From a virus, in the IMG/VR virus record IMGVR_UViG_3300003309_000010, positions 84,391 through 111,154 of that record: a DNA stretch of 26,764 bases; one strand, 5' to 3'. Below, in pieces: positions 1,965 through 16,758 of this stretch. Below the pieces are notes generated by a model. It was not told the origin of the DNA, made no database searches, and saw only the letters and a program-made list of their open reading frames with translations. Made by a program: the position numbers and the translations under genes. Numbering within the stretch: the stretch's first letter is position 1; the number at the start of each line of letters is the position of its first letter.

Positions 1965-2008
1965 TTCGCGCTCTGTAATAGTTGACGGATATATTATAAG
2001 AATGACTT
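1965..2008 (+). promoter_or_regulatory. Candidate early promoter of the nvRNAP beta' gene
   Basis: TTCGCGCTcTGTA...TATTATAagAATGACTT, closely matched at 16692-16733 upstream of another nvRNAP gene. Confidence 0.6.
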
Positions 2009-2029: not shown

Positions 2030-3640
2030 ATGTCAGATAACAGCGATATAGATACCGGATTCATAACAGGTATCGATCAGATGTTACCGCCCAAACTTGA
2101 CTTGTCGAAAATTAAGCCTCCCGATAACGGAATAGTGGGGACTTATATTTCTATCGACAACGATTTTGAGCAGTCGTCTTATCGTCGCTACATTCAAGAA
2201 TTACTCGAATTTGATGGGGTGAGTCTCAAGGATGCCCTATACACCATTTTACCAGCAGGAGGTAAATTAAACGGATACCCAAGTTGCCCATGTGGTTATA
2301 CCAAGTTCGGTATCAACCAAATAGCCGATGCGTCAGTTAAGTGTATCAAATGCCATCAACCGGTTACCGACCCCGCTGAAGGTAAATTGGAGACTATGTT
2401 GTGGCTACATAGACCGGTGGGTATCAAGCGGTTTATCAACCCTAAGATATTTATCGACCTACAGTCGCTGACTAGCGAGGCCGCGTATAAAAACTTCGAC
2501 CCATGGCGATTCTTAACCGACCCCACGTACAAACCGACCCCGGCAGGTTTGGAATCTAAGCTGTATCTGAACATGGAGATGTGGGTAAGCGACGGGGTGC
2601 AGCGTGGGTATAACTACTTTGCTGATCATCTCAGGGAACTCATCACACGTGTATTGGATGAAATTCCAAAACATGTTAAGACGGTGAAAGCCGACTGGTT
2701 AGTGAAGAAAAGAGACATGTTGGTTATTTTGGAGTACAGCGACGACTATCTCTTTTCTGACGTACTCCCTATTCTCAATCAATTAATTTTACAGATTGAG
2801 AAAGTGGGCGAAACGTACATGAAAGCGGATACCACGGAGGTGTACGGGAAAGCCGTTACTACGGTGATTGGATTACCGTTCCGGGAAGGCAGCGTTGAAC
2901 TGACGCCGAAAGTACTCACCACTGCTGAGAAAGAAGTGTCCAAAATGGCATGGCTAATGGCCGACTTCTATATTCAAACGGTGAAGATTGAGGGTCAAAA
3001 AGAAGGGGTACTTAAGTCGGATTTATTCGGTCAGCGCGGAGATTACACCTATCGGGGCGTGGTGGTATCCATTCAGGAACCACATTATGCGGATGAGTGT
3101 CACATCCCGTGGGCGTTTGGCATCATTCTGCTAACACCTTTTCTGATACCAAGGCTGACTAAGTTGGGATTCTCTTTCCCGGAAGCCGTAGGTTTCATTG
3201 AAGAACACACGTTAACGTACCACCCCATCTTGGACAATTTGATGCAAGAGGTCATCAGAGAGTTCAAGAACGGTGTTGCGTTAGGACCAACAGAGCGCGG
3301 GTTGGATGGGATACCTACCTACACCATACGTTATCCATTCTTGGAAGTACATTCAGGGCAGTTACTGACCATCACTAAAGTCAAGAAAGACCCTAATGAT
3401 AGGTCAATCGCTATATCTGCATTGGGTCAACCTGGCTGGCGTGGAGACCATGACGGCGATGAGTTCTCGGCTAACATTATTCGAGATCGTTACATCTACC
3501 AAACATTGAAATCCACACACATCACATCCAACACGATGGATTTAAACTCACCGTATACTTATGGTCGCGCAGCGGAGCTACCCGATCCTGTTACCCAAAT
3601 GTGGGTAGGGTATACTAAACTATTCAAACAAAGGAGGTAA
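2030..3640 (+). CDS. Non-virion RNA polymerase beta'-like catalytic subunit (phiKZ gp55-56.1-like)
   Basis: N-terminal Zn-binding CPCG...CIKC, LFGQRGDYTYRGVV (beta' GKRVDYSGRSVI-like), catalytic DxDGD loop (GDHDGDE), GAGGAG RBS. Confidence 0.92.
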   Translation: MSDNSDIDTGFITGIDQMLPPKLDLSKIKPPDNGIVGTYISIDNDFEQSSYRRYIQELLEFDGVSLKDALYTILPAGGKLNGYPSCPCGYTKFGINQIADASVKCIKCHQPVTDPAEGKLETMLWLHRPVGIKRFINPKIFIDLQSLTSEAAYKNFDPWRFLTDPTYKPTPAGLESKLYLNMEMWVSDGVQRGYNYFADHLRELITRVLDEIPKHVKTVKADWLVKKRDMLVILEYSDDYLFSDVLPILNQLILQIEKVGETYMKADTTEVYGKAVTTVIGLPFREGSVELTPKVLTTAEKEVSKMAWLMADFYIQTVKIEGQKEGVLKSDLFGQRGDYTYRGVVVSIQEPHYADECHIPWAFGIILLTPFLIPRLTKLGFSFPEAVGFIEEHTLTYHPILDNLMQEVIREFKNGVALGPTERGLDGIPTYTIRYPFLEVHSGQLLTITKVKKDPNDRSIAISALGQPGWRGDHDGDEFSANIIRDRYIYQTLKSTHITSNTMDLNSPYTYGRAAELPDPVTQMWVGYTKLFKQRR

Positions 3641-3641
3641 G

Positions 3642-4217
3642 ATGGATGCGTTCACTGCCGCTACGTCTTTTCTGCCGTCTGCGTCGGTATGCGAACACAT
3701 ACTCAGACAGCAAGATGTCTTCCGGCAACAGGTCGGTGAAGAGACATGGCAATCGTTTCAACATCAACAAACGCTGTTAGAAACACAAAGTCCGTCACTA
3801 ACTGTTCAGCAGATTGAAAGGCTCCGTATCGACCAACGAAATGTGTTGGACGAAAGAGCAATAGAAAGGATGCGCACTCCGTATCTACTGAAGACAGCCA
3901 GTGAGTTCAATCAGCCTCTCATCATGGCTAATCCTCTACTAGCTAATATGCATAAGTTGGGACAACTTGAGGGGTATGGTTTGGATGTCGACCCGACGCG
4001 CGCTAAACTGTTGCAAAACAGGATAGAGTCGGGCATGGTGATAGAAAGAGACGGCGTATTCGGTCACAGAGAGTACGCTGACTCTGCCGGAGACATGGAT
4101 GTGTACAATCACCTGACTATGTTGGAGAGACGAATTACCCAACAAAACCAGCGTACCGCAATATCATCTGTTTTAGATGATATTGATTTTAGTTCGACGG
4201 TGAGTTGGGGATTTTAA
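3642..4217 (+). CDS. Conserved phiKZ-like protein (gp59/Imp3-like by synteny)
   Basis: GGAGG RBS; directly follows the gp55-like gene; Q..IMANP...G.LEGY segment recalled from this family. Confidence 0.55.
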   Translation: MDAFTAATSFLPSASVCEHILRQQDVFRQQVGEETWQSFQHQQTLLETQSPSLTVQQIERLRIDQRNVLDERAIERMRTPYLLKTASEFNQPLIMANPLLANMHKLGQLEGYGLDVDPTRAKLLQNRIESGMVIERDGVFGHREYADSAGDMDVYNHLTMLERRITQQNQRTAISSVLDDIDFSSTVSWGF

Positions 4218-4239
4218 TGTAGGTTGTGGGTACACACCC

Positions 4240-4270
4240 CTCTTAATAACTATAGCGCAGTTATTAAGAG
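4240..4270 (+). promoter_or_regulatory. Hairpin covering the RBS region of the 4279 gene
   Basis: 12-bp perfect stem CTCTTAATAACT / AGTTATTAAGAG with loop ATAGCGC. The 3' arm contains the purine-rich AAGAG ahead of ATG 4279, and there is no U-tract. Confidence 0.55.
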
Positions 4271-4278
4271 AGTGGCCC

Positions 4279-4623
4279 ATGCAACCTGTTCTAACACTAC
4301 TAGGTAAAGTCGAAGACCCCGAAAGGGGTCTTAAACTTTTAGTCGAATATTATTTTAAGTGTGTAGAGACTGGCAAACAGTACCTAGGTGGACGCACTTT
4401 TTCTTTTGTTAAAGATTTGCAGGAAAAGAAACCCGAAGAGGCTATCAGAAATAGTCTAACGGAATTACTTCGTCAACACTTTGACGAAGTTGTCGAAATC
4501 GAAGTCACACAAATAGATACCCACATGAACATCAATATACACGTGATGGATGGGGGTGAAAGCATTGCGCTCGATCAGCTACATGAATCGATTGATCGAG
4601 TATTAATTGAAGGTGATAACTAA
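4279..4623 (+). CDS. Conserved phiKZ-like protein (gp61-like; possibly gp25-like baseplate fold)
   Basis: 114-aa ORF in the conserved block between the nvRNAP gene and SbcD; the fold is a guess. Confidence 0.55.
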   Translation: MQPVLTLLGKVEDPERGLKLLVEYYFKCVETGKQYLGGRTFSFVKDLQEKKPEEAIRNSLTELLRQHFDEVVEIEVTQIDTHMNINIHVMDGGESIALDQLHESIDRVLIEGDN

Positions 4624-4632
4624 GGAATAACC

Positions 4633-5232
4633 ATGAACGAAAACAATGAACATTCACAAGATAGTGAACGTACCCGAGGGTTAAGTCGTCAGTCTAGCGA
4701 ACTGGCGGACGAACTTAAAGGTATCATCGCCAAAGGTGTCGAACCTAACGAAGTGACGGAGCAGGAATTCGTCGAGACCTATTTACCGCAAGCTATCTTG
4801 TTTCACAACAAACAACCTTTTGATATGGGCTATTGGGTTGGTAAAGCAGGTTCTATCAACAATGGACTGCGAGTTACTAACGGGATGGGTGAAGTACTGT
4901 TTGAAACTCCACCTCTGGTTAATATGGCCAGTGTTCGAGTAGAGGCTGGGTTCAGCGACATGATCACAGCCGGACAAGATGCCGTGCGTCAGAATAAAGA
5001 CAGAGCGTTTGCTGAGTCTCAATTCCTGACCCAAGACACTGTCAAACTAAGCGCACCGGATACCAGTTCAAGAATTATCGCTTGGCATGGCATTTTTAAA
5101 CGCTATGGACACAACATAGTCGAAGTAGATGAGGGGGGCGAGGTCGCGTCAAATTCTACCGACGATGGTGCTAAAGTGGAGACTGCTGAGGTAGTCAAGA
5201 CTCCTCGCGGTGGCGTTGATGAGTTCCTCTAA
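4633..5232 (+). CDS. Conserved phiKZ-like hypothetical protein (gp62-like)
   Basis: AAGGA RBS; E..F...YLP...W...AG...G.VLF.TPPL pattern; position upstream of SbcD. Confidence 0.6.
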   Translation: MNENNEHSQDSERTRGLSRQSSELADELKGIIAKGVEPNEVTEQEFVETYLPQAILFHNKQPFDMGYWVGKAGSINNGLRVTNGMGEVLFETPPLVNMASVRVEAGFSDMITAGQDAVRQNKDRAFAESQFLTQDTVKLSAPDTSSRIIAWHGIFKRYGHNIVEVDEGGEVASNSTDDGAKVETAEVVKTPRGGVDEFL

Positions 5233-6367
5233 AAAGCCCATCAGAGCATTAGCGATTAGCGATTTACACCTCGGTGTAAATCGCTTGTCCCCTAACAGAA
5301 TGTATCGCTCTTTATTTACGGAGTTGTCGGTTAGGTTAACCAAAGATATCGACTACTGTTTTGTCACGGGCGATGTCTATGATAGACAGCTACGCACAGA
5401 CAGTCTTGAGTCTAAAACCGCCAACCAGTTCTGTTCTTTTTTATGTAGCGCTTGTGCGCGCAACCAAATAATCCTGATTGTATTAAATGGAACGACTAAC
5501 CACGACGGTAATCAGTCCGAAAATTTCGTACACATCAATGCCGGACTATCTGAACCGTGTGAACTCTATTATTGGGACAAAGTGAAAGTCCACAACATAA
5601 ACGGTATCACCTTTTTATCGGTACCAGACAACGCAGCGAGCACACACGCTGGAGTGCAGGAGAAAGTTTCCGCTGCACTGAGAGAAGCAGGTGTGGATAA
5701 AGTGGACATCTCGCTTACCCATGGGTTGTATGACAGCCATATGTTGGCCGGGTTCGGATTAGAGGCCCACAGTGCTGAGTTTTACTTAAGCATTACTCGA
5801 ACACTGATCGTTAACGGACACATCCACACCACATCCCGACATGAACACTTGCGAACTGTAGGGAGCTATGATTGTCATCGACAGGGCGAAGAGGAAGCCA
5901 AAGGTGGTTGGGAGTTTGTAATTGACACCGAAAAGTGTACGTTTGAAGAAACATTTTTTGAAAACCGTACTGCGTATCAGTTCAAGCGATTCGATATTTC
6001 AGAAAGCATCGAGGACATTGGTGAAGCTTACGAGTTCGTCACTAAAAAGTTGTCGGAGTTCAAAATACTACCCACCTGTTATATCACACTGGGGTATGTT
6101 GGTAAGTTAGACATGTCCGCGTTGTTGGAACGATTGAACGATAACTATCGGGGCGATGTCGTATTCAGCACAACGAAAAAGAAACCGCCAAAACACCAGT
6201 TTGAAGAAGACGACACGGAATTGATGGATTTATCTTTTTTAGTCAAAGACGTTACCCCCATAACCCCGGAAACTCATTGTGAACTAATCAGTGATTGGAT
6301 GTTACGAAATGGGACTCAGTACGACATTAAACACGAAACAATGTTGGAGGAGCTGATGGATGGATAA
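5219..6367 (+). CDS. sbcD: SbcD/Mre11-like metallophosphoesterase nuclease (phiKZ gp65-like)
   Basis: Motifs ISDLHLG, TGDVYD, GTTNHD, THG, NGHIH, VGS. Confidence 0.9.
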   Translation: MSSSKKPIRALAISDLHLGVNRLSPNRMYRSLFTELSVRLTKDIDYCFVTGDVYDRQLRTDSLESKTANQFCSFLCSACARNQIILIVLNGTTNHDGNQSENFVHINAGLSEPCELYYWDKVKVHNINGITFLSVPDNAASTHAGVQEKVSAALREAGVDKVDISLTHGLYDSHMLAGFGLEAHSAEFYLSITRTLIVNGHIHTTSRHEHLRTVGSYDCHRQGEEEAKGGWEFVIDTEKCTFEETFFENRTAYQFKRFDISESIEDIGEAYEFVTKKLSEFKILPTCYITLGYVGKLDMSALLERLNDNYRGDVVFSTTKKKPPKHQFEEDDTELMDLSFLVKDVTPITPETHCELISDWMLRNGTQYDIKHETMLEELMDG

Positions 6368-7136
6368 GTATGAGTTAGGCGAACATGGTTTGGTTATCCC
6401 ATTCGGTGCCATGTTCGAAAACGGTGACTTTGAAACATTACGTGGTTATCCTGTTGTCGTTAATGTTGGTACAGTGGTTCGTAATGTTATCTCCGCATGC
6501 ACTGGGAGCGAATCGTATTTGTTAGAAACGCTCCCGTTGCAGGTGGAAATGATGATGGATCTTTTGTCTTCTACATTTTCTACGCTCTACAATATGCGGG
6601 TCATCTATTATCGTTGTTTATACCAAGACGTGAAGTATGGTATCTTAGGGCAACCGATGAAACCCACGCAAAAAAGAGAGTTGTATAAGAAATGGATGGC
6701 AGTGGGAGTGGACAGCTTGGACAAAGCTGAACATGTCCATCTGATACAGGGTTCGTTGGAAGGACCTGACGACAACATTCCGGACAAAACGTGCATCATA
6801 ACGCACTACGCGCAAGATTTACTGCGACATCATCGATTCGATGAATTTCATTTGATTGAGAGTCACACAGGAGCCGTTAAACGCAATGTTGATTTCAACA
6901 GTAAACTAACACTAAAACCCGAACTAAAGAAGATCATACCGTTCAACAAGTTTACACAGCGCGTGTTCGGTGACGGAACACTGTATGGTCCATTGGATTT
7001 AGAAGTCCGGCGAAACATCATCGCGATTGCGGAAGGGACGGGTTGGACAAAGAGTACCCCTCTTAATCGTATTAATCATTTAATGAAGGCTAACAACCCT
7101 TCGTTAACCCACCTTATGCAGAAATTATTACGCTAA
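6360..7136 (+). CDS. Conserved phiKZ-like protein (gp66-like)
   Basis: GGAGG RBS, overlaps the SbcD stop; N..TVVRN, THY..DLL, LIESHTG, IPFN...RVFGD pattern. Confidence 0.65.
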   Translation: MDKYELGEHGLVIPFGAMFENGDFETLRGYPVVVNVGTVVRNVISACTGSESYLLETLPLQVEMMMDLLSSTFSTLYNMRVIYYRCLYQDVKYGILGQPMKPTQKRELYKKWMAVGVDSLDKAEHVHLIQGSLEGPDDNIPDKTCIITHYAQDLLRHHRFDEFHLIESHTGAVKRNVDFNSKLTLKPELKKIIPFNKFTQRVFGDGTLYGPLDLEVRRNIIAIAEGTGWTKSTPLNRINHLMKANNPSLTHLMQKLLR

Positions 7137-7185
7137 CACGTAATGTAATTTCTTTGTGTGAACACCACCAATTTAGGAAGAAAGC

Positions 7186-7827
7186 ATGTCAAAACAAGAA
7201 AGACCTTTTACGGATAAGCATTGGGATCTAATGCTTACCGGTGCCTGTAATGGTACAGAGTGGGACCCGAAAGGCGGGTTCGGTCCGGGACAAAAGCCGG
7301 GCGAAATCAGCTGGAGTATGTTGTGCGACCACGAGCAGATGGCTGACGGCAAAAAGTCATGGTACCATTCGCTGAGTTACACCGACTTTTTACGCATCAT
7401 TGTCGGACTGGAACAACTGGCTAACGATTTGGACTCAGGTGAAGTCGTTCGTGAATTTAAATTCCAATACTACAAAGACGGCAAAATGAACATGTCCGGG
7501 GTGAGTCTGCTTATCGGACGCGCGGCTAATGGCTACATTTATCTGAGTTGGCGCAATAAGAAAATTCCAAAAGTGGGTTTCTGGTTCCGCAGTGCAGGTA
7601 CTCGCATGGTCGCTTGTAACGGCGACAGTCAAGATGAAGATCCGAAAATCGACACTCGCGATTGTGTTCTGGCTCGGACTGAACACTGGCGTGCGCGTTA
7701 TCAGGATTGGGCTTCGCAAACTATCGTCAAGGACGACTATACTGGGTCGTCTGGTGGAAGCGGCAGCGGTAGTCAACAATCGTCGAATAATAACGATGTT
7801 GATTTTGACGACGACATCCCATTCTAA
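7186..7827 (+). CDS. Single-stranded nucleic-acid-binding protein, ChmC/phiKZ gp67-like, with SSB-type acidic tail
   Basis: Position before the gp68-like gene; aromatic/beta-rich core; G/S/N-rich disordered linker; ends DFDDDIPF. Confidence 0.7.
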   Translation: MSKQERPFTDKHWDLMLTGACNGTEWDPKGGFGPGQKPGEISWSMLCDHEQMADGKKSWYHSLSYTDFLRIIVGLEQLANDLDSGEVVREFKFQYYKDGKMNMSGVSLLIGRAANGYIYLSWRNKKIPKVGFWFRSAGTRMVACNGDSQDEDPKIDTRDCVLARTEHWRARYQDWASQTIVKDDYTGSSGGSGSGSQQSSNNNDVDFDDDIPF

Positions 7828-7839
7828 TTTTACTATTCT

Positions 7840-7867
7840 TAAGGAGGTGCCTTCTGGCACCTCCTTA
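7840..7867 (+). terminator. Terminator-like hairpin after the ChmC-like gene
   Basis: TAAGGAGGTGCC-TTCT-GGCACCTCCTTA, 12-bp stem; the U-tract is weak. Confidence 0.6.
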
Positions 7868-7940
7868 CTGTTCCGTTGTTTACACACAGAGCACACTAGC
7901 GAAACAACTCGCGTCCGTTGTATGCGTGTCGTTGGATTCG

Positions 7941-7954
7941 ACGACGATATTATA
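7941..7954 (+). promoter_or_regulatory. Candidate promoter core ACGACGATATTATA
   Basis: An identical 14-mer occurs at 16710-16723, upstream of the nvRNAP beta gene. Confidence 0.55.
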
Positions 7955-7987
7955 CCCATGTATCAACCTAATAATGGGAACGCACTA

Positions 7988-8887
7988 ATGAAATTAGAAG
8001 CTACATTACGAGAATATAAGAAAAAGAGGACCCTATATACCATCGCACTTATCGGGAGAGAAAGGTACCCTATACGATGCGACCACCTGTATGGTCCCGG
8101 GTATATAGGGGACGTTGAAAAACATTTCAACATGGCTAATGTTGTACTGGAAATACTCAATGACGACAACCAGAAAGCCTTGTTCGATTGTTATGTGGAC
8201 ACGTTTGCTGAACTCAGGTACAGAAGACAAATATACCAAAATCATTTCAAGGCTTCAGAACGTTTTCTGGGGACGTTCCTCGCACTAATGCCGCCAGAAA
8301 GGGTGGAGCGTTTCTGCCAATCAAGGTATCCTGAAGATAAAGACGCTGGTCTCAAAACGTACATGCAGTTGTTGCTTCCTATCCTTATCGCTGTCGCTGC
8401 TGCGCAGGACGAAATCAGACCGTTAAAAGCTTGCAACCAATCTTGGGCGTTAGCCTACAACATGTTCGCTGACAAAGTCTCGCCATTGATGTCGGTCTTT
8501 CCTCGTTACGATGAACTACTCAATGGGATAGAATCTGCTATACAAATTGATAGTGATGCTTGTATCGGCGCAACCCTTTCTGGAGTACCATTGCACCACC
8601 AGTACATTCACTTCATGATGTTGATGTCGTTACAGGATTACGACGACTACATCGGACATGCTAAGACGTTCTACCAAGAATTGGAAAGACCGCTGCAAGG
8701 ACGGTCTCCTACCACTGCGTTTAGACATTCCGAACTCAGTAGACGCAGTAGTGGTAGAAGGGGAGGATCGTCTGATGATTCTGACGTGACCACAGCGGCA
8801 GTTGCTACCGGCACATGGTTATCCTCCGGTAATAACGATTCCAGCAGAAGTTCATCTGGGGGTAGCAGTAGCAATGATAATGATTAA
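7988..8887 (+). CDS. Truncated paralog of the gp68-like nvRNAP specificity subunit (299 aa)
   Basis: Collinear similarity to the next gene: MKLEATLRE/MKFETYYRE, FNMANVVLEILNDDNQKALFDCYV/FDPVNALLKNLTGEQQITLFGAYV, LMPPERVE/VLPPKGVE, QLLLPIL/KLLLPVL. GGGA lies upstream of ATG 7988. Confidence 0.75.
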   Translation: MKLEATLREYKKKRTLYTIALIGRERYPIRCDHLYGPGYIGDVEKHFNMANVVLEILNDDNQKALFDCYVDTFAELRYRRQIYQNHFKASERFLGTFLALMPPERVERFCQSRYPEDKDAGLKTYMQLLLPILIAVAAAQDEIRPLKACNQSWALAYNMFADKVSPLMSVFPRYDELLNGIESAIQIDSDACIGATLSGVPLHHQYIHFMMLMSLQDYDDYIGHAKTFYQELERPLQGRSPTTAFRHSELSRRSSGRRGGSSDDSDVTTAAVATGTWLSSGNNDSSRSSSGGSSSNDND

Positions 8888-8908
8888 AACAATAACTAAG
8901 GGTGATAA

Positions 8909-10468
8909 ATGAAATTTGAAACCTATTATCGGGAAGACATTCCTGCTCGAGAAGGCGGCACAGTAGCCGGGGTAAAAATCGAACTGGATGGGGAGGTGTT
9001 ACATTTTTCCTTAGGGAAGGCGGGAAGGCGTAGCTACGTTGACCCAGACAGACTGTTCGATCCTGTCAATGCGTTACTCAAAAACCTAACTGGAGAACAG
9101 CAGATAACGCTGTTTGGTGCGTATGTGAGAGCCGATCAACTACATAACATCAATGTAGGTGTACAGGAAACCATTGCGGGTCTCATCGGTATCTGTGACG
9201 ATATCTTCGGCGTACTTCCCCCTAAAGGTGTAGAGGCGTGGGGTAAAACCAGTTATCGCGGATTTGAGGTGCCTCAGACTATCACGGAAGAACGCAAGCC
9301 TGGAAGTTACCCTGCTCATTCCAGTTACGATGAAATCGAGTACCGCGCACTATGCGCGTTATCGACAACATTCAAACTGCTGCTTCCGGTGCTGTTCCGG
9401 TTCATGGAAATCTTCGGCCAATTTTACGGAATCGCCATGAAAGAATTCAGGCTATTTCAGCTACTGGATGAAGATGAGCTTAGCGAAGCGGAAGCGTTTG
9501 TTAAACTGTTAAACTACACCACAGGTGTAGTATCGGATGCAACCGGTACCCCAAAAGTACCAATGGGGTTACTGACGGACGGGGTCGGCGCAGATGTCTA
9601 TCCCAGTTATGTCCTAAGCTCTAAACTCATCAGGGACTTGGCCCTGTCAGAAACGGATATCGGTGACAGAGGGGATACCATCAACAACGTTGCGGCGAAA
9701 ATAACGCGAGGTATCAACACGCACGCGGAACAAACCTCACGGCACTTCGACTATGCCGTGAAACCGCTACCTAAGGACAGACCGGGCAACGAAGACGGTA
9801 ACACGTCTATCCGGGAAGATCAAGGTGCCTCAGAACCCTATTCGGATTTGTACCGTGCAGGGTATAATATTGCGGCTTCGGATACCGAGTTGTACATTAA
9901 GTTAGGTATTGAGAAGGACATCTACTTCGTAATGATGGATCACATTGATAGACTTAAACCAACTATCAATGAAAACAAACTATCGGTCGCGATACTAACT
10001 GTAGCATCTCGTTTCGATCCGGAAGGCGTTGCGTTAGTAAATCGAGATAACTTTAAGAACTTGATGGCGTGTTCCGCAGCGTTGTTACACCAATATAAGC
10101 TGCATAATCTTGCCGGATTCATGATGGCAAAATCAGAACCATTGGGTGATGTTGTGTCAGCTGATTTTCTAACCACCCTTAATGCTAAGCCCGATCCTGA
10201 GTTGTTGGCTAAAGCTAAAGCGGTCTATGAAGATGCGCATGATGGGTACAATTACATTGAAAGATGGTTAGACGAGTTCGCTAAACGTATTGCGCAAAAC
10301 GGATGGGAACTGTGTCTACCAGATAGTCTACACCCCAACTACGGAGTAGGGAAACGCTACGTAGCGGGTAAAGATTTCAAAGACGAATTCTTAACATTAA
10401 CTGTGCTGTCTGACGCGGTTCAGGCTAAAGCAAAAACTAACATTGGAGTTCTACAAAAATGTCGTTAA
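8909..10468 (+). CDS. nvRNAP promoter-specificity (sigma-like) subunit, phiKZ gp68-like
   Basis: 519 aa; F..VN.LL..L..EQQ..LF..Y, Y...EY..L..LS...K..LP and EDGNTS..E motifs; canonical position. Confidence 0.78.
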   Translation: MKFETYYREDIPAREGGTVAGVKIELDGEVLHFSLGKAGRRSYVDPDRLFDPVNALLKNLTGEQQITLFGAYVRADQLHNINVGVQETIAGLIGICDDIFGVLPPKGVEAWGKTSYRGFEVPQTITEERKPGSYPAHSSYDEIEYRALCALSTTFKLLLPVLFRFMEIFGQFYGIAMKEFRLFQLLDEDELSEAEAFVKLLNYTTGVVSDATGTPKVPMGLLTDGVGADVYPSYVLSSKLIRDLALSETDIGDRGDTINNVAAKITRGINTHAEQTSRHFDYAVKPLPKDRPGNEDGNTSIREDQGASEPYSDLYRAGYNIAASDTELYIKLGIEKDIYFVMMDHIDRLKPTINENKLSVAILTVASRFDPEGVALVNRDNFKNLMACSAALLHQYKLHNLAGFMMAKSEPLGDVVSADFLTTLNAKPDPELLAKAKAVYEDAHDGYNYIERWLDEFAKRIAQNGWELCLPDSLHPNYGVGKRYVAGKDFKDEFLTLTVLSDAVQAKAKTNIGVLQKCR

Positions 10469-11937
10469 CTATGTTCACCCCCAGACAAGTCTCTATTGGG
10501 GCTATTTTAGGTTCGCAGACGCAATACTCTCGAACCTACTCGCTGAATGCGACTGGCAGTAATGTCAACGATTTGCTTAAGCATACTAGCAATGGGTTAG
10601 ATATCAACGTTAACACTATCGTTAACGGTTCAGGTATCATGGCTATGAGTTCAGATGCCCATGCAGAAATTGATATCGACGGTGGTTGGCAAGAACCTCG
10701 CCATGTATTCGAGCTGATACTGGAGAGCAACACAACAGGTTCATTGTTTATTCTGACCGGATTCACGTCCACAGATTACATGTTGAACGGTCGCATCAAC
10801 CCAAGAGCCGAGATTCATTTCAACACATATACCGAAATGGCTCCTCAACAACAACCAGATGGTTCAATTCAGTACATGGCGATGTCCACCGACAACATCA
10901 TGGCTGCTACAGACCTCAAAGGCAACTTGGAGCTAAACCGTTCGTTGTCGGTAACACCTACCCACGTACTCGCTGCCAGTTCCATGTACGGTATGGGTAA
11001 CGATAACATGACAACCATTGGTCAGCACGATACCTGCGCCAGTACCGCCCGGAACAATCAGGCTGCCGCGTGGTTGGGCCGGACAATCGACAGCTATGTT
11101 ACCCAAATGGACAGCATGGATATGTCTGGTCAAGGTGCGCACGGTTATATGCGTGACGGTGCTGCAAGTGTGGTTGCAAATCATGCATCTCACCATGCTG
11201 CCATAACCGAAACCGATTTGGCGCAAGCTGCGTTCATCGGTAGTTTGTTATCAAACTACCACGATATGTCGGCAGGGGCGCTGACATGGGGCTATCTGCT
11301 GGAAAAATTACCCCAGATTCAACATCTGATTCGGCCACCTTTACCAGCCGGGGGTGGTTCTCAGATTAAACTGGAAGAGTGGAATAACCGCGACACTGCT
11401 ATTATCATCTCAGAATACGCGAGCGCTATTCCAGCATTAATGTTAGAGTGTGGTGTGAAGTATTTCAACCATACGGTAACGAACGTTAATAGCGGGATGA
11501 ATCTGGATCCTTTTAATACAACAGCATGTAGCTATCGTGTCAATGGTGATGCCAATAATCCCGGTGTTTTGTTCTCTGTGGATAATGCTAAGGAAATGGA
11601 ACTGTTAAACATGTTGCAAGTGCGCATCACTAACATGATTTTCCCTCGCATTTCCCGTGGGCACAAAATGACCATTAGTTGTGAAGCAAGCAAGCTCACT
11701 AACATGACTATTGCTGTGGATTGGAATGGGTACACTTTCGCTCATACTGCCGCAACATTTGCTTCGTCTAAGTGGAGTGCGATGTCAGCGAACATCAACA
11801 GTTCGACCGACCTCGCCAACGGCGTTGGTAAATTGGGCAACGCATTAATCGAGGCTCGTCGTGACAATCCAACTGTCTCTGCACAAGCATCATCTTCTAA
11901 CACATCGACCAGCGTTGTAGATGCGTGGTCGAAGTAA
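10459..11937 (+). CDS. Putative phage nucleus protein-import factor PicA/Imp1 (phiKZ gp69-like)
   Basis: 492 aa, overlapping the gp68-like stop; Q..R.Y, I.GGW.E.R..F.L and LTGFT motifs; assigned mainly by synteny. Confidence 0.68.
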   Translation: MSLTMFTPRQVSIGAILGSQTQYSRTYSLNATGSNVNDLLKHTSNGLDINVNTIVNGSGIMAMSSDAHAEIDIDGGWQEPRHVFELILESNTTGSLFILTGFTSTDYMLNGRINPRAEIHFNTYTEMAPQQQPDGSIQYMAMSTDNIMAATDLKGNLELNRSLSVTPTHVLAASSMYGMGNDNMTTIGQHDTCASTARNNQAAAWLGRTIDSYVTQMDSMDMSGQGAHGYMRDGAASVVANHASHHAAITETDLAQAAFIGSLLSNYHDMSAGALTWGYLLEKLPQIQHLIRPPLPAGGGSQIKLEEWNNRDTAIIISEYASAIPALMLECGVKYFNHTVTNVNSGMNLDPFNTTACSYRVNGDANNPGVLFSVDNAKEMELLNMLQVRITNMIFPRISRGHKMTISCEASKLTNMTIAVDWNGYTFAHTAATFASSKWSAMSANINSSTDLANGVGKLGNALIEARRDNPTVSAQASSSNTSTSVVDAWSK

Positions 11938-11956
11938 TCGATAATAAGGAATTACC

Positions 11957-13159
11957 ATGTCTAAACAAACACCCGTTAGAAAACAGACGTTAGAGTTTTT
12001 CAAATCTTTACTCAGCGATGCAGGTTGTGTATTCTCTGATGACGGTGTCATCAGTAGTACGTACCTTAAGTCTGGCACACTTGCAACCAAACAGGTTGAT
12101 ATTGAAGGTCTACCTGTTGTGTTGCCTACTCCGGAGAGGCTGAATGAACCCGAAGGGGAAACCATCGTTTTCGCACCGCTATGCGAAAACGTATTGCAAG
12201 GTGAGAGCGCCATTATCACTATGTTGAAGAAGGTGTTGAACCAAAGCATTAATCAACGCATTGGTATCTTGATGTCGAGCATCGCCACGTTGGCGATTGA
12301 TGAGAGATCTTACTCGCCAAAAATGCGAGCGCTTATCAACAAGAACCCGGACCTGCGTGATAAGACGATCAAACCTCTTAAGAAGTTAATCAGTCGTGTG
12401 GGACACCTACCTACTCAACATATTTTAGGCATCTACTTAACGTCTAAAAATGTTGAGTTCGAAGGACGCAAGGTTAAACGTAAAGCGTCGGTAAGTTCAA
12501 CTCTGTTGGATGAACTCTCTAACGGCAAAACGTGGGGCGTCGATATGCCGAAATGCGATGCCAGAGCTATCGCTACGCTGATTGAGTCAATCATGCCCGG
12601 GGTAAACGAAGACAACTATACCTATGGTAGCAACAGCACTGTGGCGCCAAATTTCCACGCAATTGCATCAGCCTTCTTAAACGTAAGTATGCGTCTTACT
12701 GAAGTCGAAACCATCGTCTATAAATACTTAGATAGCGAAGCGTTGGCAATCATTCCGGAACCCGCATCCAACTCATGGGCAGATGGACTGGAAGACCTGT
12801 ATGTTATGGAGAAGGCATTCCCTTCCTTAACCGGTAACAACGGCAACACTATCGTGGGCAAAACCGCTGCGGTGGATACGAGCAGAGTCAAGGTTGATGA
12901 AGGTAGCGGATTGTCGCCAACGTCATCTCCGCACGCGACTCAGTCTCCTCCGCCTCCTGCGACTGCGGAGACCAAACCTTCCGCGTGGGGAATGCCTCAT
13001 GCTAATACGCCGCCCGCAGCTCCACAACCCGGACAAAGGGGAGGGGACCTTTGGAACGCCCAACCCGCTTCGGGTTTTGCGCCACCTGCGGCTCCTGCTC
13101 AATCGCCAAGCAATTTTGCTGCTCCGGTTCAAAATGGCAATAAGTGGGGGATGGTATAA
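11957..13159 (+). CDS. Conserved phiKZ gp70-like protein with P/A/Q-rich disordered C-terminus
   Basis: G.PVVLPT.E.L, F.PL.EN...GES, Y.YGSNS.VAP.FHA pattern; AAGGA RBS; synteny. Confidence 0.68.
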   Translation: MSKQTPVRKQTLEFFKSLLSDAGCVFSDDGVISSTYLKSGTLATKQVDIEGLPVVLPTPERLNEPEGETIVFAPLCENVLQGESAIITMLKKVLNQSINQRIGILMSSIATLAIDERSYSPKMRALINKNPDLRDKTIKPLKKLISRVGHLPTQHILGIYLTSKNVEFEGRKVKRKASVSSTLLDELSNGKTWGVDMPKCDARAIATLIESIMPGVNEDNYTYGSNSTVAPNFHAIASAFLNVSMRLTEVETIVYKYLDSEALAIIPEPASNSWADGLEDLYVMEKAFPSLTGNNGNTIVGKTAAVDTSRVKVDEGSGLSPTSSPHATQSPPPPATAETKPSAWGMPHANTPPAAPQPGQRGGDLWNAQPASGFAPPAAPAQSPSNFAAPVQNGNKWGMV

Positions 13160-14333: not shown

Positions 14334-14708
14334 ATGAAAACTAGAATTACAAACGACGACTTTAGACGCGTATCACGGCCCATCGATCTTGTATGTCACG
14401 ATTTTACTAAATCGGAAATAACCTCAGGACTGAACCAAATATTGTCGGGTTTCGATACTCGAGAGGCCGCTTTACAAAAACCCTCAACCATGTTGTCTGA
14501 AATGAGCACGTCAATAGACCGCGGTTGGGGGATGTCGGTACATAACATCGTTGTTGTGCGTGACATTGCAACTAAAATAATAACACTCGTCAATCGTAGT
14601 ATAGGTCCTGTCATTATACACGAGATAGAATGTCACGAGGAGTACGTCGTGGTCCATTACACGGCGGATGTTGGCGAAGCAGCATTGGACTACAGACGCG
14701 TTAGCTAA
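14334..14708 (+). CDS. Paralog array member 4 (hypothetical)
   Basis: GGAGG RBS; motifs LNQILSG, IHEIECHEEYVVVHY. Confidence 0.75.
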   Translation: MKTRITNDDFRRVSRPIDLVCHDFTKSEITSGLNQILSGFDTREAALQKPSTMLSEMSTSIDRGWGMSVHNIVVVRDIATKIITLVNRSIGPVIIHEIECHEEYVVVHYTADVGEAALDYRRVS

Positions 14709-14717
14709 GGAGGTGTA

Positions 14718-15095
14718 ATGAGAACATTGATTAGTGCGCAGGAAATAGACAAGGTATTGATGGAGTGTGTGGATAGTAACGTGTTCGGTGTAAGCTACAA
14801 ACCGAGCCCTAAGTTAGAAAGCACACTGTCGTCACTATTGTTAGGTGTCACCACCTGCCAAAAAGAACCGGTATACGCGGATACAAACGTCGACGATGAA
14901 TATGGTGGTCAGGCGGCTGCCTATGATCATATTAATCAGCTAGTAGACCTCGCGTTGGCAAATTGCGTATTAGAAATTTTAAACCGCAGTAGGGATTCTG
15001 GAGTCATTGAAGGATTAGAATGCAGAGAAGTCGGCATTGCTGTATTAATCCATAACACTGGCGATAGACCCCCGCCTTATTATAAGGAGAATTAG
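14718..15095 (+). CDS. Paralog array member 5 (hypothetical)
   Basis: AAGGAGGT RBS; motifs LSSLLLG, IEGLECREVGIAVLI. Confidence 0.78.
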   Translation: MRTLISAQEIDKVLMECVDSNVFGVSYKPSPKLESTLSSLLLGVTTCQKEPVYADTNVDDEYGGQAAAYDHINQLVDLALANCVLEILNRSRDSGVIEGLECREVGIAVLIHNTGDRPPPYYKEN

Positions 15096-15546: not shown

Positions 15547-15945
15547 ATGCATATGTTGGTCTTGGACAGCGATATGGAGGAATCCAGTTACGTCTATCGT
15601 TGTTTAGATTTTGACCCTCAGTCAAAAGACCGTGTCAATCGCGAGTGTTTGGCTGTATACTTTGAGAAATATTTGTTGGGTAGGGACGCTCTGTTGCTAA
15701 CCAAAGACGACATAATAGACAACTTATACGATACCGCGATGTACCCAGATATGGCCGATGATGAATCTTACATTGTGGATTATTTGTTGGTCGCAATTGT
15801 CTCGGCAGTTAATGAGAGAGCGCGCTTGCACTTGGTGTACGAAACTATCGAAGTTGTACCGTTTGGATACGTGTTAGGTTTCTCTGTTAAAGCTGGAGGG
15901 GTAGTACGTGAGGGTGTTGGTAACGCACAAGCGGTTGCTGGATAA
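15547..15945 (+). CDS. Paralog array member 7 (hypothetical)
   Basis: GGAGGAG RBS; motifs YFEKYLLG, DYLLVAIV, YETIEVVPFGYVLGF. Confidence 0.78.
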   Translation: MHMLVLDSDMEESSYVYRCLDFDPQSKDRVNRECLAVYFEKYLLGRDALLLTKDDIIDNLYDTAMYPDMADDESYIVDYLLVAIVSAVNERARLHLVYETIEVVPFGYVLGFSVKAGGVVREGVGNAQAVAG

Positions 15946-16270
15946 TTGCTATTCAGCGGCTGTTTACCGAGATTTAGATTTCAATGATTTATCCGATGAT
16001 GACGTTAAGTACGCTTTTGAACAAAATGTTAAAGGTGAATGTTTTGTCGATTTAGGTTCAGAATACTACAGTGATAGACTCATGGATACGCCTCTGGGTA
16101 TTAGGATGATGGAAGACCACGATAAACTAGGTTTCATTGTAGCCGACCTCGTCCCCGCCATACTCGACGAATTAGGCGCGGGACGTCAAAATACCGCATT
16201 AGCGCAAACGGTGTTTGAATCTATTGAGTGTCATCCTTTTGGATATAGCGTTATTTTAGAGCGTAATTAG
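15908..16270 (+). CDS. Paralog array member 8 (hypothetical)
   Basis: GGAGGG RBS before GTG; motifs AFEQNVKG, DLVPAILD, FESIECHPFGYSVIL. Confidence 0.78.
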   Translation: MRVLVTHKRLLDNCYSAAVYRDLDFNDLSDDDVKYAFEQNVKGECFVDLGSEYYSDRLMDTPLGIRMMEDHDKLGFIVADLVPAILDELGAGRQNTALAQTVFESIECHPFGYSVILERN

Positions 16271-16691: not shown

Positions 16692-16733
16692 TTCGCGCTA
16701 TGTATATTAACGACGATATTATAGTAATGACTT
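16692..16733 (+). promoter_or_regulatory. Candidate early promoter of the nvRNAP beta gene
   Basis: TTCGCGCTaTGTA...ACGACGATATTATAgtAATGACTT; matches 1965-2008 and 7941-7954. Confidence 0.6.
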
Positions 16734-16758
16734 TAAAGCAATAATAAATGAGGTGATT

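Follow-up and report, generated by a model that had tools for sequence, protein, structure and literature searches.

A stretch of 26,764 nucleotides from a marine phiKZ-like jumbo phage (IMG/VR virus record IMGVR_UViG_3300003309_000010, positions 84,391 to 111,154; hereafter the window) carries, next to the gene for gp68, the sigma-like subunit of the phage non-virion RNA polymerase (nvRNAP), a shorter open reading frame (ORF) whose product is very likely homologous to the N-terminal domain of gp68. The two frames, here called A and B, are spaced 21 nucleotides apart:

7988-8887, plus strand: ORF A, 299 amino acids, a putative diverged N-terminal paralogue of gp68
8909-10468, plus strand: ORF B, 519 amino acids, the full-length gp68 sigma-like nvRNAP subunit

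A first-pass annotation, made from the letters alone, had placed both frames correctly and had proposed that A is either an alternative sigma factor or a decoy. Judged by sequence comparison, A is probably a duplicate of gp68 that is not a sigma factor. Our best guess is that it may be a decoy for partners that gp68 meets outside the polymerase. We hold tentatively to the view that A is a free mimic of the outer surface of gp68 and not a sigma factor; granted a duplicate that is not a sigma factor, the chance of such mimicry would come close to even without reaching it. Current accounts describe gp68 as one subunit, permanently embedded. If A is a maintained second copy of the N-terminal half, this domain is able to exist apart from the rest, and the phage-specific peripheral subdomain (about residues 40-115) would be a part that is useful by itself.

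The phiKZ subunit comprises an N-terminal domain (residues 1-272), a linker (273-313) and a C-terminal domain (314-521) (PMC7618050). It is embedded in the polymerase core and required from the earliest assembly step (PMC8287921), and it is thought to be non-exchangeable (PMC8287921, PMC7618050). The promoter consensus of phiKZ is read by gp123, and residues K34, R36, R244 and R245 of gp68 bend the non-template strand, R244 and R245 lining its groove; the tethered N-terminal domain binds weakly, and its peripheral subdomain is poorly resolved in the phiKZ structure (PMC12809450). In gp226 of phage AR9, sigma2-like character is confined to the final 80 residues of the N-terminal domain (184-264, which contact the core); the periphery has a fold specific to phages (PMC9209446). 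The N-terminal domain of both proteins is described as independently folded and mobile, moving on and off the core (PMC9209446, PMC7618050). The first-pass annotation had credited both subunits with promoter specificity; gp226 does read the promoter, and in phiKZ that task falls to gp123.

Homology of ORF A to the gp68 N-terminal domain

The identity of B is given by its match to phrog_3209 (E 1.8e-59), by the match of a gp68 alignment profile to PHIKZ068 (E 1e-121), and by full-length homology to the gp68/gp226 group together with gp67-gp68-gp69 synteny; B is the orthologue of phiKZ gp68 (PDB 7ogp_B, 8que_B, 9rjs_B). The pairwise similarity of A to B, which the first-pass annotation had read block by block, is weak: BLASTP gives an E value of 0.003 at 22% identity over A42-133, and the local alignment score is matched by 24 of 2000 shuffles. 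At the nucleotide level the best E value is 0.6, and similarity between the two genes as DNA was rejected.

Comparison with the gp68 family gave a clearer result. Of 813 proteins from a family search the top 150 were used, less two short ones (P0073 and P0111) dropped from the local profile; P0111 is a gp68 homologue of 358 amino acids that ends inside the C-terminal domain and is probably a contig-end fragment. Against a profile of 149 homologues from which B and its 72% relative had been excluded, A scored 14.2 bits, a score reached by none of 3000 shuffles (best 3.5 bits); the best of 124 other ORFs of the contig reached 3.1 bits. HHalign with 151 sequences aligned A34-201 to B37-227 (probability 92.7, E 4.2e-7), the next of 123 other ORFs standing at E 0.007, and the E value fell with profile depth, from 3.7e-4 with 5 sequences through 6.4e-6 with 9 to 4.2e-7 with 151. 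Among 102 frames other than gp68 in the loci of five relatives, the best E value was 0.028. Profile position 38 pairs with residue 38 of A at the start of the match, so that the register is kept from the start codon. These family profiles and HHalign support the claim that A is a paralogue of the adjacent gp68.

With B excluded, all of the blocks named in the first-pass annotation fall in the register that it had given. The match is strong for A42-112 (0 of 2000 shuffles) and individually weak for the others: LLLPI is equalled by 12 of 2000 shuffles, ELLN..GATLSGV by 53 and MKLE by 75. Combined, the three weak blocks give P 6e-4, with block limits picked after that earlier alignment had been seen.

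That the resemblance is a chance likeness of amphipathic helices, or A a decaying remnant, is very improbable. The pairwise scores are weak, 14 bits would fall short of significance across a whole database, and the structure models lack a clear match; against this stand the absence of any shuffle among 3000 that reaches the score, the clear gap to 123 contig ORFs and 102 ORFs of relatives, an in-register offset from residue 1, and an open frame with coding statistics.

Conserved and eroded regions of ORF A

Along its length A divides into three parts:

A38-112 (8099..8323, plus strand): the best-conserved block, equivalent to the helical subdomain at the periphery of the N-terminal domain in gp68, with F47, N51, L57, Q62, F66 and Y69 kept
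A113-240 (8324..8707, plus strand): the weakly alignable remainder of the N-terminal domain, including an eroded sigma2-like region
A241-299 (8708..8884, plus strand): a low-complexity tail rich in S, G, R and D, modelled at low confidence and mostly as coil in both models

Conserved columns of the family at which A, or B, carries the identical residue were counted in two alignments. In the peripheral block (45-118), A keeps 6 of 15 columns in one alignment and 6 of 16 in the other, against 8 in B each time, and in region 119-190 it keeps 6 of 23 and 5 of 25, against 11 and 11. In the sigma2-like region, taken as B191-275 by inference from gp226, the counts fall to 2 of 18 in A against 12 in B, and to 3 of 16 against 8. 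The linker retains 1 of 13 columns (6 in B). For the C-terminal domain, 1 column of 35-40 is found in A, as stray matches; this domain is absent from A, as the first-pass annotation had said, the protein ending at 299 amino acids in its low-complexity tail.

The arginines of phiKZ R244/R245, part of the conserved RRL motif of the sigma2-like region, map to R242/D243 of B and have no counterpart in A in three alignments; A174-225 contains no lysine or arginine. The insert that A was said to lack is subject to two competing registers, one of which deletes 21 residues, whereas the other pairs T124-Y125..P145 with T139-Y140..P160. One alignment places GGSSDDSDVTT of A at the acidic sigma-finger linker; 1975 of 2000 shuffles score equally well, and homology of the tail to the gp68 linker is unsupported. 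Derivation of the tail from that of gp67 is likewise unsupported (388 of 2000 shuffles). Relative to phiKZ gp68, then, A matches the N-terminal domain in register and shares the operon position, but it is a second copy that lacks the embedded C-terminal domain, the R244/R245 motif and any supported linker.

Transcriptional organization of the gp68 locus

The region upstream of A, and two further sites in the window, carry the following features:

7186..7827, plus strand: gp67-like gene (phrog_3284), the conserved neighbour upstream of gp68, with an acidic tail like that of single-strand binding protein (SSB)
7840..7867, plus strand: hairpin after the gp67-like gene with a perfect 12-bp stem, likely the conserved gp67/gp68 punctuation hairpin
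7941..7954, plus strand: the 14-mer ACGACGATATTATA, a phage promoter motif of early type that is likely the original promoter of gp68 and would now drive A and B together
16710..16723, plus strand: second exact copy of ACGACGATATTATA, preceding an RNA polymerase beta-like gene at 16753
1988..1997, plus strand: variant of the motif, preceding the gp55-like nvRNAP gene (2030-3640)

The hairpin is real, as the first-pass annotation had claimed, in that the region folds better than all of 200 shuffles; it has no U-tract and drew no terminator call. That annotation had also described the 14-mer as a promoter-like element belonging to A and shared with an nvRNAP gene. The sharing holds, since ACGACGATATTATA occurs only at 7941 and 16710 in the 111-kb contig. 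The assignment to A does not, since in relatives this position is taken by the promoter of gp68. In Phabio, PhiEaH1, RsoM3USA and RisingSun, read by eye, gp67 is followed by a hairpin and a similar motif and then directly by gp68, and in Halocynthia phage JM-2012 a similar motif lies immediately upstream of gp68 despite 8 genes in the gap.

The motif belongs to a family with eight sites in the contig, against 1.5 expected, all of them intergenic and on the plus strand, although the pattern was built from these sites:

contig positions 5634, 25928, 45640, 50071, 64041, 86378, 92334 and 101103

Two variants are seen, GGATATATTA[CT] and ACGATATTA[CT], and three of the eight sites precede genes of nvRNAP operons. 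As an AT-rich, intergenic, TATATTAC-like motif, it has the character of a Chimalliviridae early promoter, the type used by the virion RNA polymerase (vRNAP). It matches the early-promoter consensuses published for phiKZ (TATATTAC) and OBP (AKATATTATY), and that of EL (PMC7058600), and motifs of this type are described as early vRNAP promoters (PMC7598289). No such motif lies between the first codons of A and the start of B. Because the motif precedes A, none precedes B and the gap between the two genes is 21 nucleotides, A and B are likely made together, and the site at 7941 is likely a promoter for both. The order of promoter, A and B thus predicts co-transcription and not a switch. The order is also the one expected if the 5' half of gp68 had been duplicated, with the promoter first, then a truncated copy and then the complete gene.

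Coding potential, distribution and origin of ORF A

ORF A is likely a maintained gene, because its codon scores lie within the range of genes and no neutrally evolving frame stayed open in simulation. The codon score of A1-240 is 0.045 (mean of 46 long genes 0.066, minimum 0.017), the score of the whole ORF exceeds those of all 230 off-frame controls, and in a neutral simulation carried to 22% identity none of 2000 frames remained open across 240 codons (mean 9 stops). The frame is intact and coding-like. Two longer forms, one starting at 7592 and a database form of 363 amino acids, were rejected; the frame is open from 7592, but the extension scores -0.034 and does not resemble coding sequence.

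Among about 5.8 billion proteins covered by a word-based search in which lengths of 164-524 were compared, A found itself only (1 of 3043 and 1 of 635 candidates), and by this measure it is a gene-like orphan. Searches for close relatives' loci containing gp68 or gp55 yielded JM-2012 and one partial metagenome match only. A second copy of gp68 was sought by tblastn, which placed gp68 once in each of 163 records and at 94 places in 93 records (overlapping sets), a search too insensitive for a copy with the divergence of A. The one record with two places, that of phage vB_PQ1 (PQ516283), was considered as a second case and rejected, its genes, gp68 among them, being split into numerous short ORFs, likely through frameshift errors. 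The first-pass annotation knew of no comparable system, and searches of main-text literature, whose supplementary gene tables could hold one, likewise showed no gp68 paralogue; none is mentioned in the available portions of PMC7824862, PMC13282480, 10.64898/2026.10.01.755736, 10.1101/2023.01.13.523954 and 10.1101/2023.10.13.562163.

In a tree of 78 columns, A forms a long branch joined to another long branch, outside a supported clade in which 25 more distant homologues group together. A clade of A with B was not rejected (p-AU 0.24, approximately unbiased test). Duplication is common in this contig, with 11 paralogue clusters among 125 ORFs, 8 of them with adjacent members. Origin by capture of a gp68 fragment from another phage, instead of duplication in place, is quite improbable. 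Such a capture would agree with the finding that B does not stand out among the homologues as nearest to A, and the corresponding gap of JM-2012, with its 8 extra genes, accepts insertions; the exact 5'-half geometry behind the promoter, the unrejected A+B clade and the lack of a closer relative in the word-based search speak against it.

Possible functions of ORF A

We propose that a partial tandem duplication of the segment from the ribosome-binding site to the middle of gp68 gave rise to A. A copy that lacks the C-terminal anchor would be unable to form a polymerase; its core- and DNA-facing sigma2 part would therefore have drifted, whereas the solvent-facing peripheral subdomain would have been kept under selection. 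Made early alongside gp68 from one early promoter, A may bind or soak up partners that recognize the outer surface of gp68. Such a partner could come from the host, as a sensor or inhibitor in defence, or from the phage, as a factor for import or regulation. Import of nvRNAP requires Imp1 and Imp7 as well as subunit contacts (bioRxiv 10.64898/2026.09.21.753271), and nothing links A to this process.

PhyR of the alphaproteobacteria carries a sigma-derived mimic domain that does not transcribe and titrates NepR. The proposed working principle of A, titration of a partner that binds the sigma-like subunit, would be the same, but A lacks the receiver domain of PhyR. The two-domain layout of AR9 gp226, with its mobile, protease-resistant N-terminal domain (PMC9209446), makes a free domain such as A plausible as a stable protein; gp226 differs in being a single full-length subunit that reads promoters, whereas A keeps mainly the peripheral part that is not sigma-like.

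Several observations weigh against the proposal that A is a gp68 duplicate acting as a free mimic. The conserved residues of A may be merely the core of the fold, reflecting retained structure and not mimicry, and, as its sigma2-like region aligns poorly, what is counted as lost there is partly unalignable. The equivalents of K34 and R36 are ambiguous, R24 being aligned with them in three alignments and no residue in HHalign, and A has basic patches at residues 8-14, 77-80 and 246-258. Structure adds little: a single-sequence model (predicted local distance difference test score, pLDDT, 46) retrieved only generic helical matches in fold searches. A model built on the gp68 alignment (pLDDT 70) is circular as evidence of homology; with it, Foldseek ranked phiKZ gp68 first (probability 0.93, template-modelling score 0.44), but at E 0.67 and a root-mean-square deviation of 10, and the phiKZ gp68 chain is absent among the 50 rows returned by VIA-align for the A model. 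The pairwise score of A to B is 51 and is exceeded by 15 of the 151 homologues, so that A is not closer to B than to others, and its branch length is 2.23 against 0.2. Its codon score is above those of just 3 of 46 genes. Finally, searches for an orthologue in viral contigs, GenBank phages, the ESM Atlas, PHROGs and Pfam returned only A itself or nothing.

The strongest competitor holds that A derives from gp68 by duplication and kept the fold, but serves a function unrelated to gp68, its partners or transcription, as the other paralogue arrays of the contig do. This is on the unlikely side in itself, yet such plain repurposing is nearly as likely as the mimic. It is consistent with the roughly 20% identity, the long branch, the many diverged duplicates of the contig and residues compatible with a fold core. 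It accounts less well for a peripheral block nearly as conserved as in B (6 versus 8 columns) while the rest is eroded, and for the continued presence of A on an early nvRNAP operon.

The decoy of the first-pass annotation would take the position of the mobile, tethered N-terminal domain of gp68 at the beta-prime clamp of the assembled nvRNAP, thereby dampening initiation. We consider this unlikely. A does span that mobile, independently folded domain (PMC9209446, PMC7618050) and lacks the arginines of the DNA groove, as an inhibitor might. However, the part that contacts the core (residues 184-264 of gp226) is the least conserved of the A domain, a free copy would have to compete with a tethered domain that is itself a weak binder, and likely co-expression gives no timing. 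More doubtful still is a variant in which A is a plug-in half-sigma, that is, a free, exchangeable N-terminal module that would dock while the tethered domain is swung out and would alter or block promoter opening; if true, it would regulate an enzyme thought to have lost sigma exchange.

Least probable of all is that A is an alternative specificity subunit that gives access to a second class of promoters, whether by itself or as a sigma2 module working in trans: although middle transcription needs nvRNAP yet has not been reconstituted, and an alternative form of the enzyme has been suggested (PMC7598289; bioRxiv 10.64898/2026.09.21.753271), and although sigma functions are split in phage T4, with gp33 as one part (PMC7824862), A has no C-terminal anchor and no RRL motif, shares an early promoter with B, belongs to a family in which phiKZ specificity resides in gp123, and had no second-copy counterpart among the other Chimalliviridae records searched by tblastn; the middle/late sigma switch put forward in the first-pass annotation is not supported. 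An action of A on the core, if true, would bear on how middle promoters are read; because A is an orphan of one uncultured lineage, it would not be a general answer to middle-promoter recognition. The late sigma of T4 is split between gp55 and gp33. That system shows that a sigma2-only protein can function, but it acts on the host RNA polymerase and keeps its sigma2 residues, whereas the sigma2-like region of A is the most eroded.

Genomic setting and neighbouring genes

The window holds the central block of replication and transcription genes of the phage, and lies inside the 111-kb contig. Its closest named phage is JM-2012, with 32% identity in gp68. Positions 5000-12000 of the window are covered without differences by one contig in one DNA run that carries a coral metagenome label and may be the source of the record; two further runs of that study added no coverage. 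The block contains:

a gp55-like RNA polymerase subunit, SbcD, gp66-70-like genes, two further RNA polymerase subunits, a helicase and a capsid gene

The motif DHDGD is present in both catalytic-type RNA polymerase subunits (window 2030-3640 and contig 50838-52463), and phiKZ gp55 has DFDGD. The gp67-like protein ends in a G/S-rich linker followed by DFDDDIPF, and its JM-2012 orthologue ends in DFDSDIPF. We take this ending to resemble the C-terminal motif of bacterial SSB, which suggests that gp67 is a phage single-strand binding protein.

The JM-2012 gap between gp67 and gp68 (record positions 3278-8917) holds 8 inserted genes, three of them leucine-rich-repeat-like and one so annotated; by its gene content the gap is apparently a variable slot in the JM-2012 clade. 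The gene directly upstream of gp68 in that phage was considered as an orthologue of A and rejected, being leucine-rich-repeat-like.

The space that separates the gp70-like gene from the RNA polymerase genes is taken up by two paralogue pairs (window 14334-15095 and 15547-16270). The helical paralogue arrays of the contig were considered as gp68 derivatives and rejected; the family against the gp68 N-terminal domain gave E 0.26. A against the 9-member profile of the family gave probability 3 and E 0.014. One array member (contig 77703-78254) reaches 8.9 bits when compared with the profile of the gp68 subdomain, a score owed to one helix, and the family as a whole has no match.

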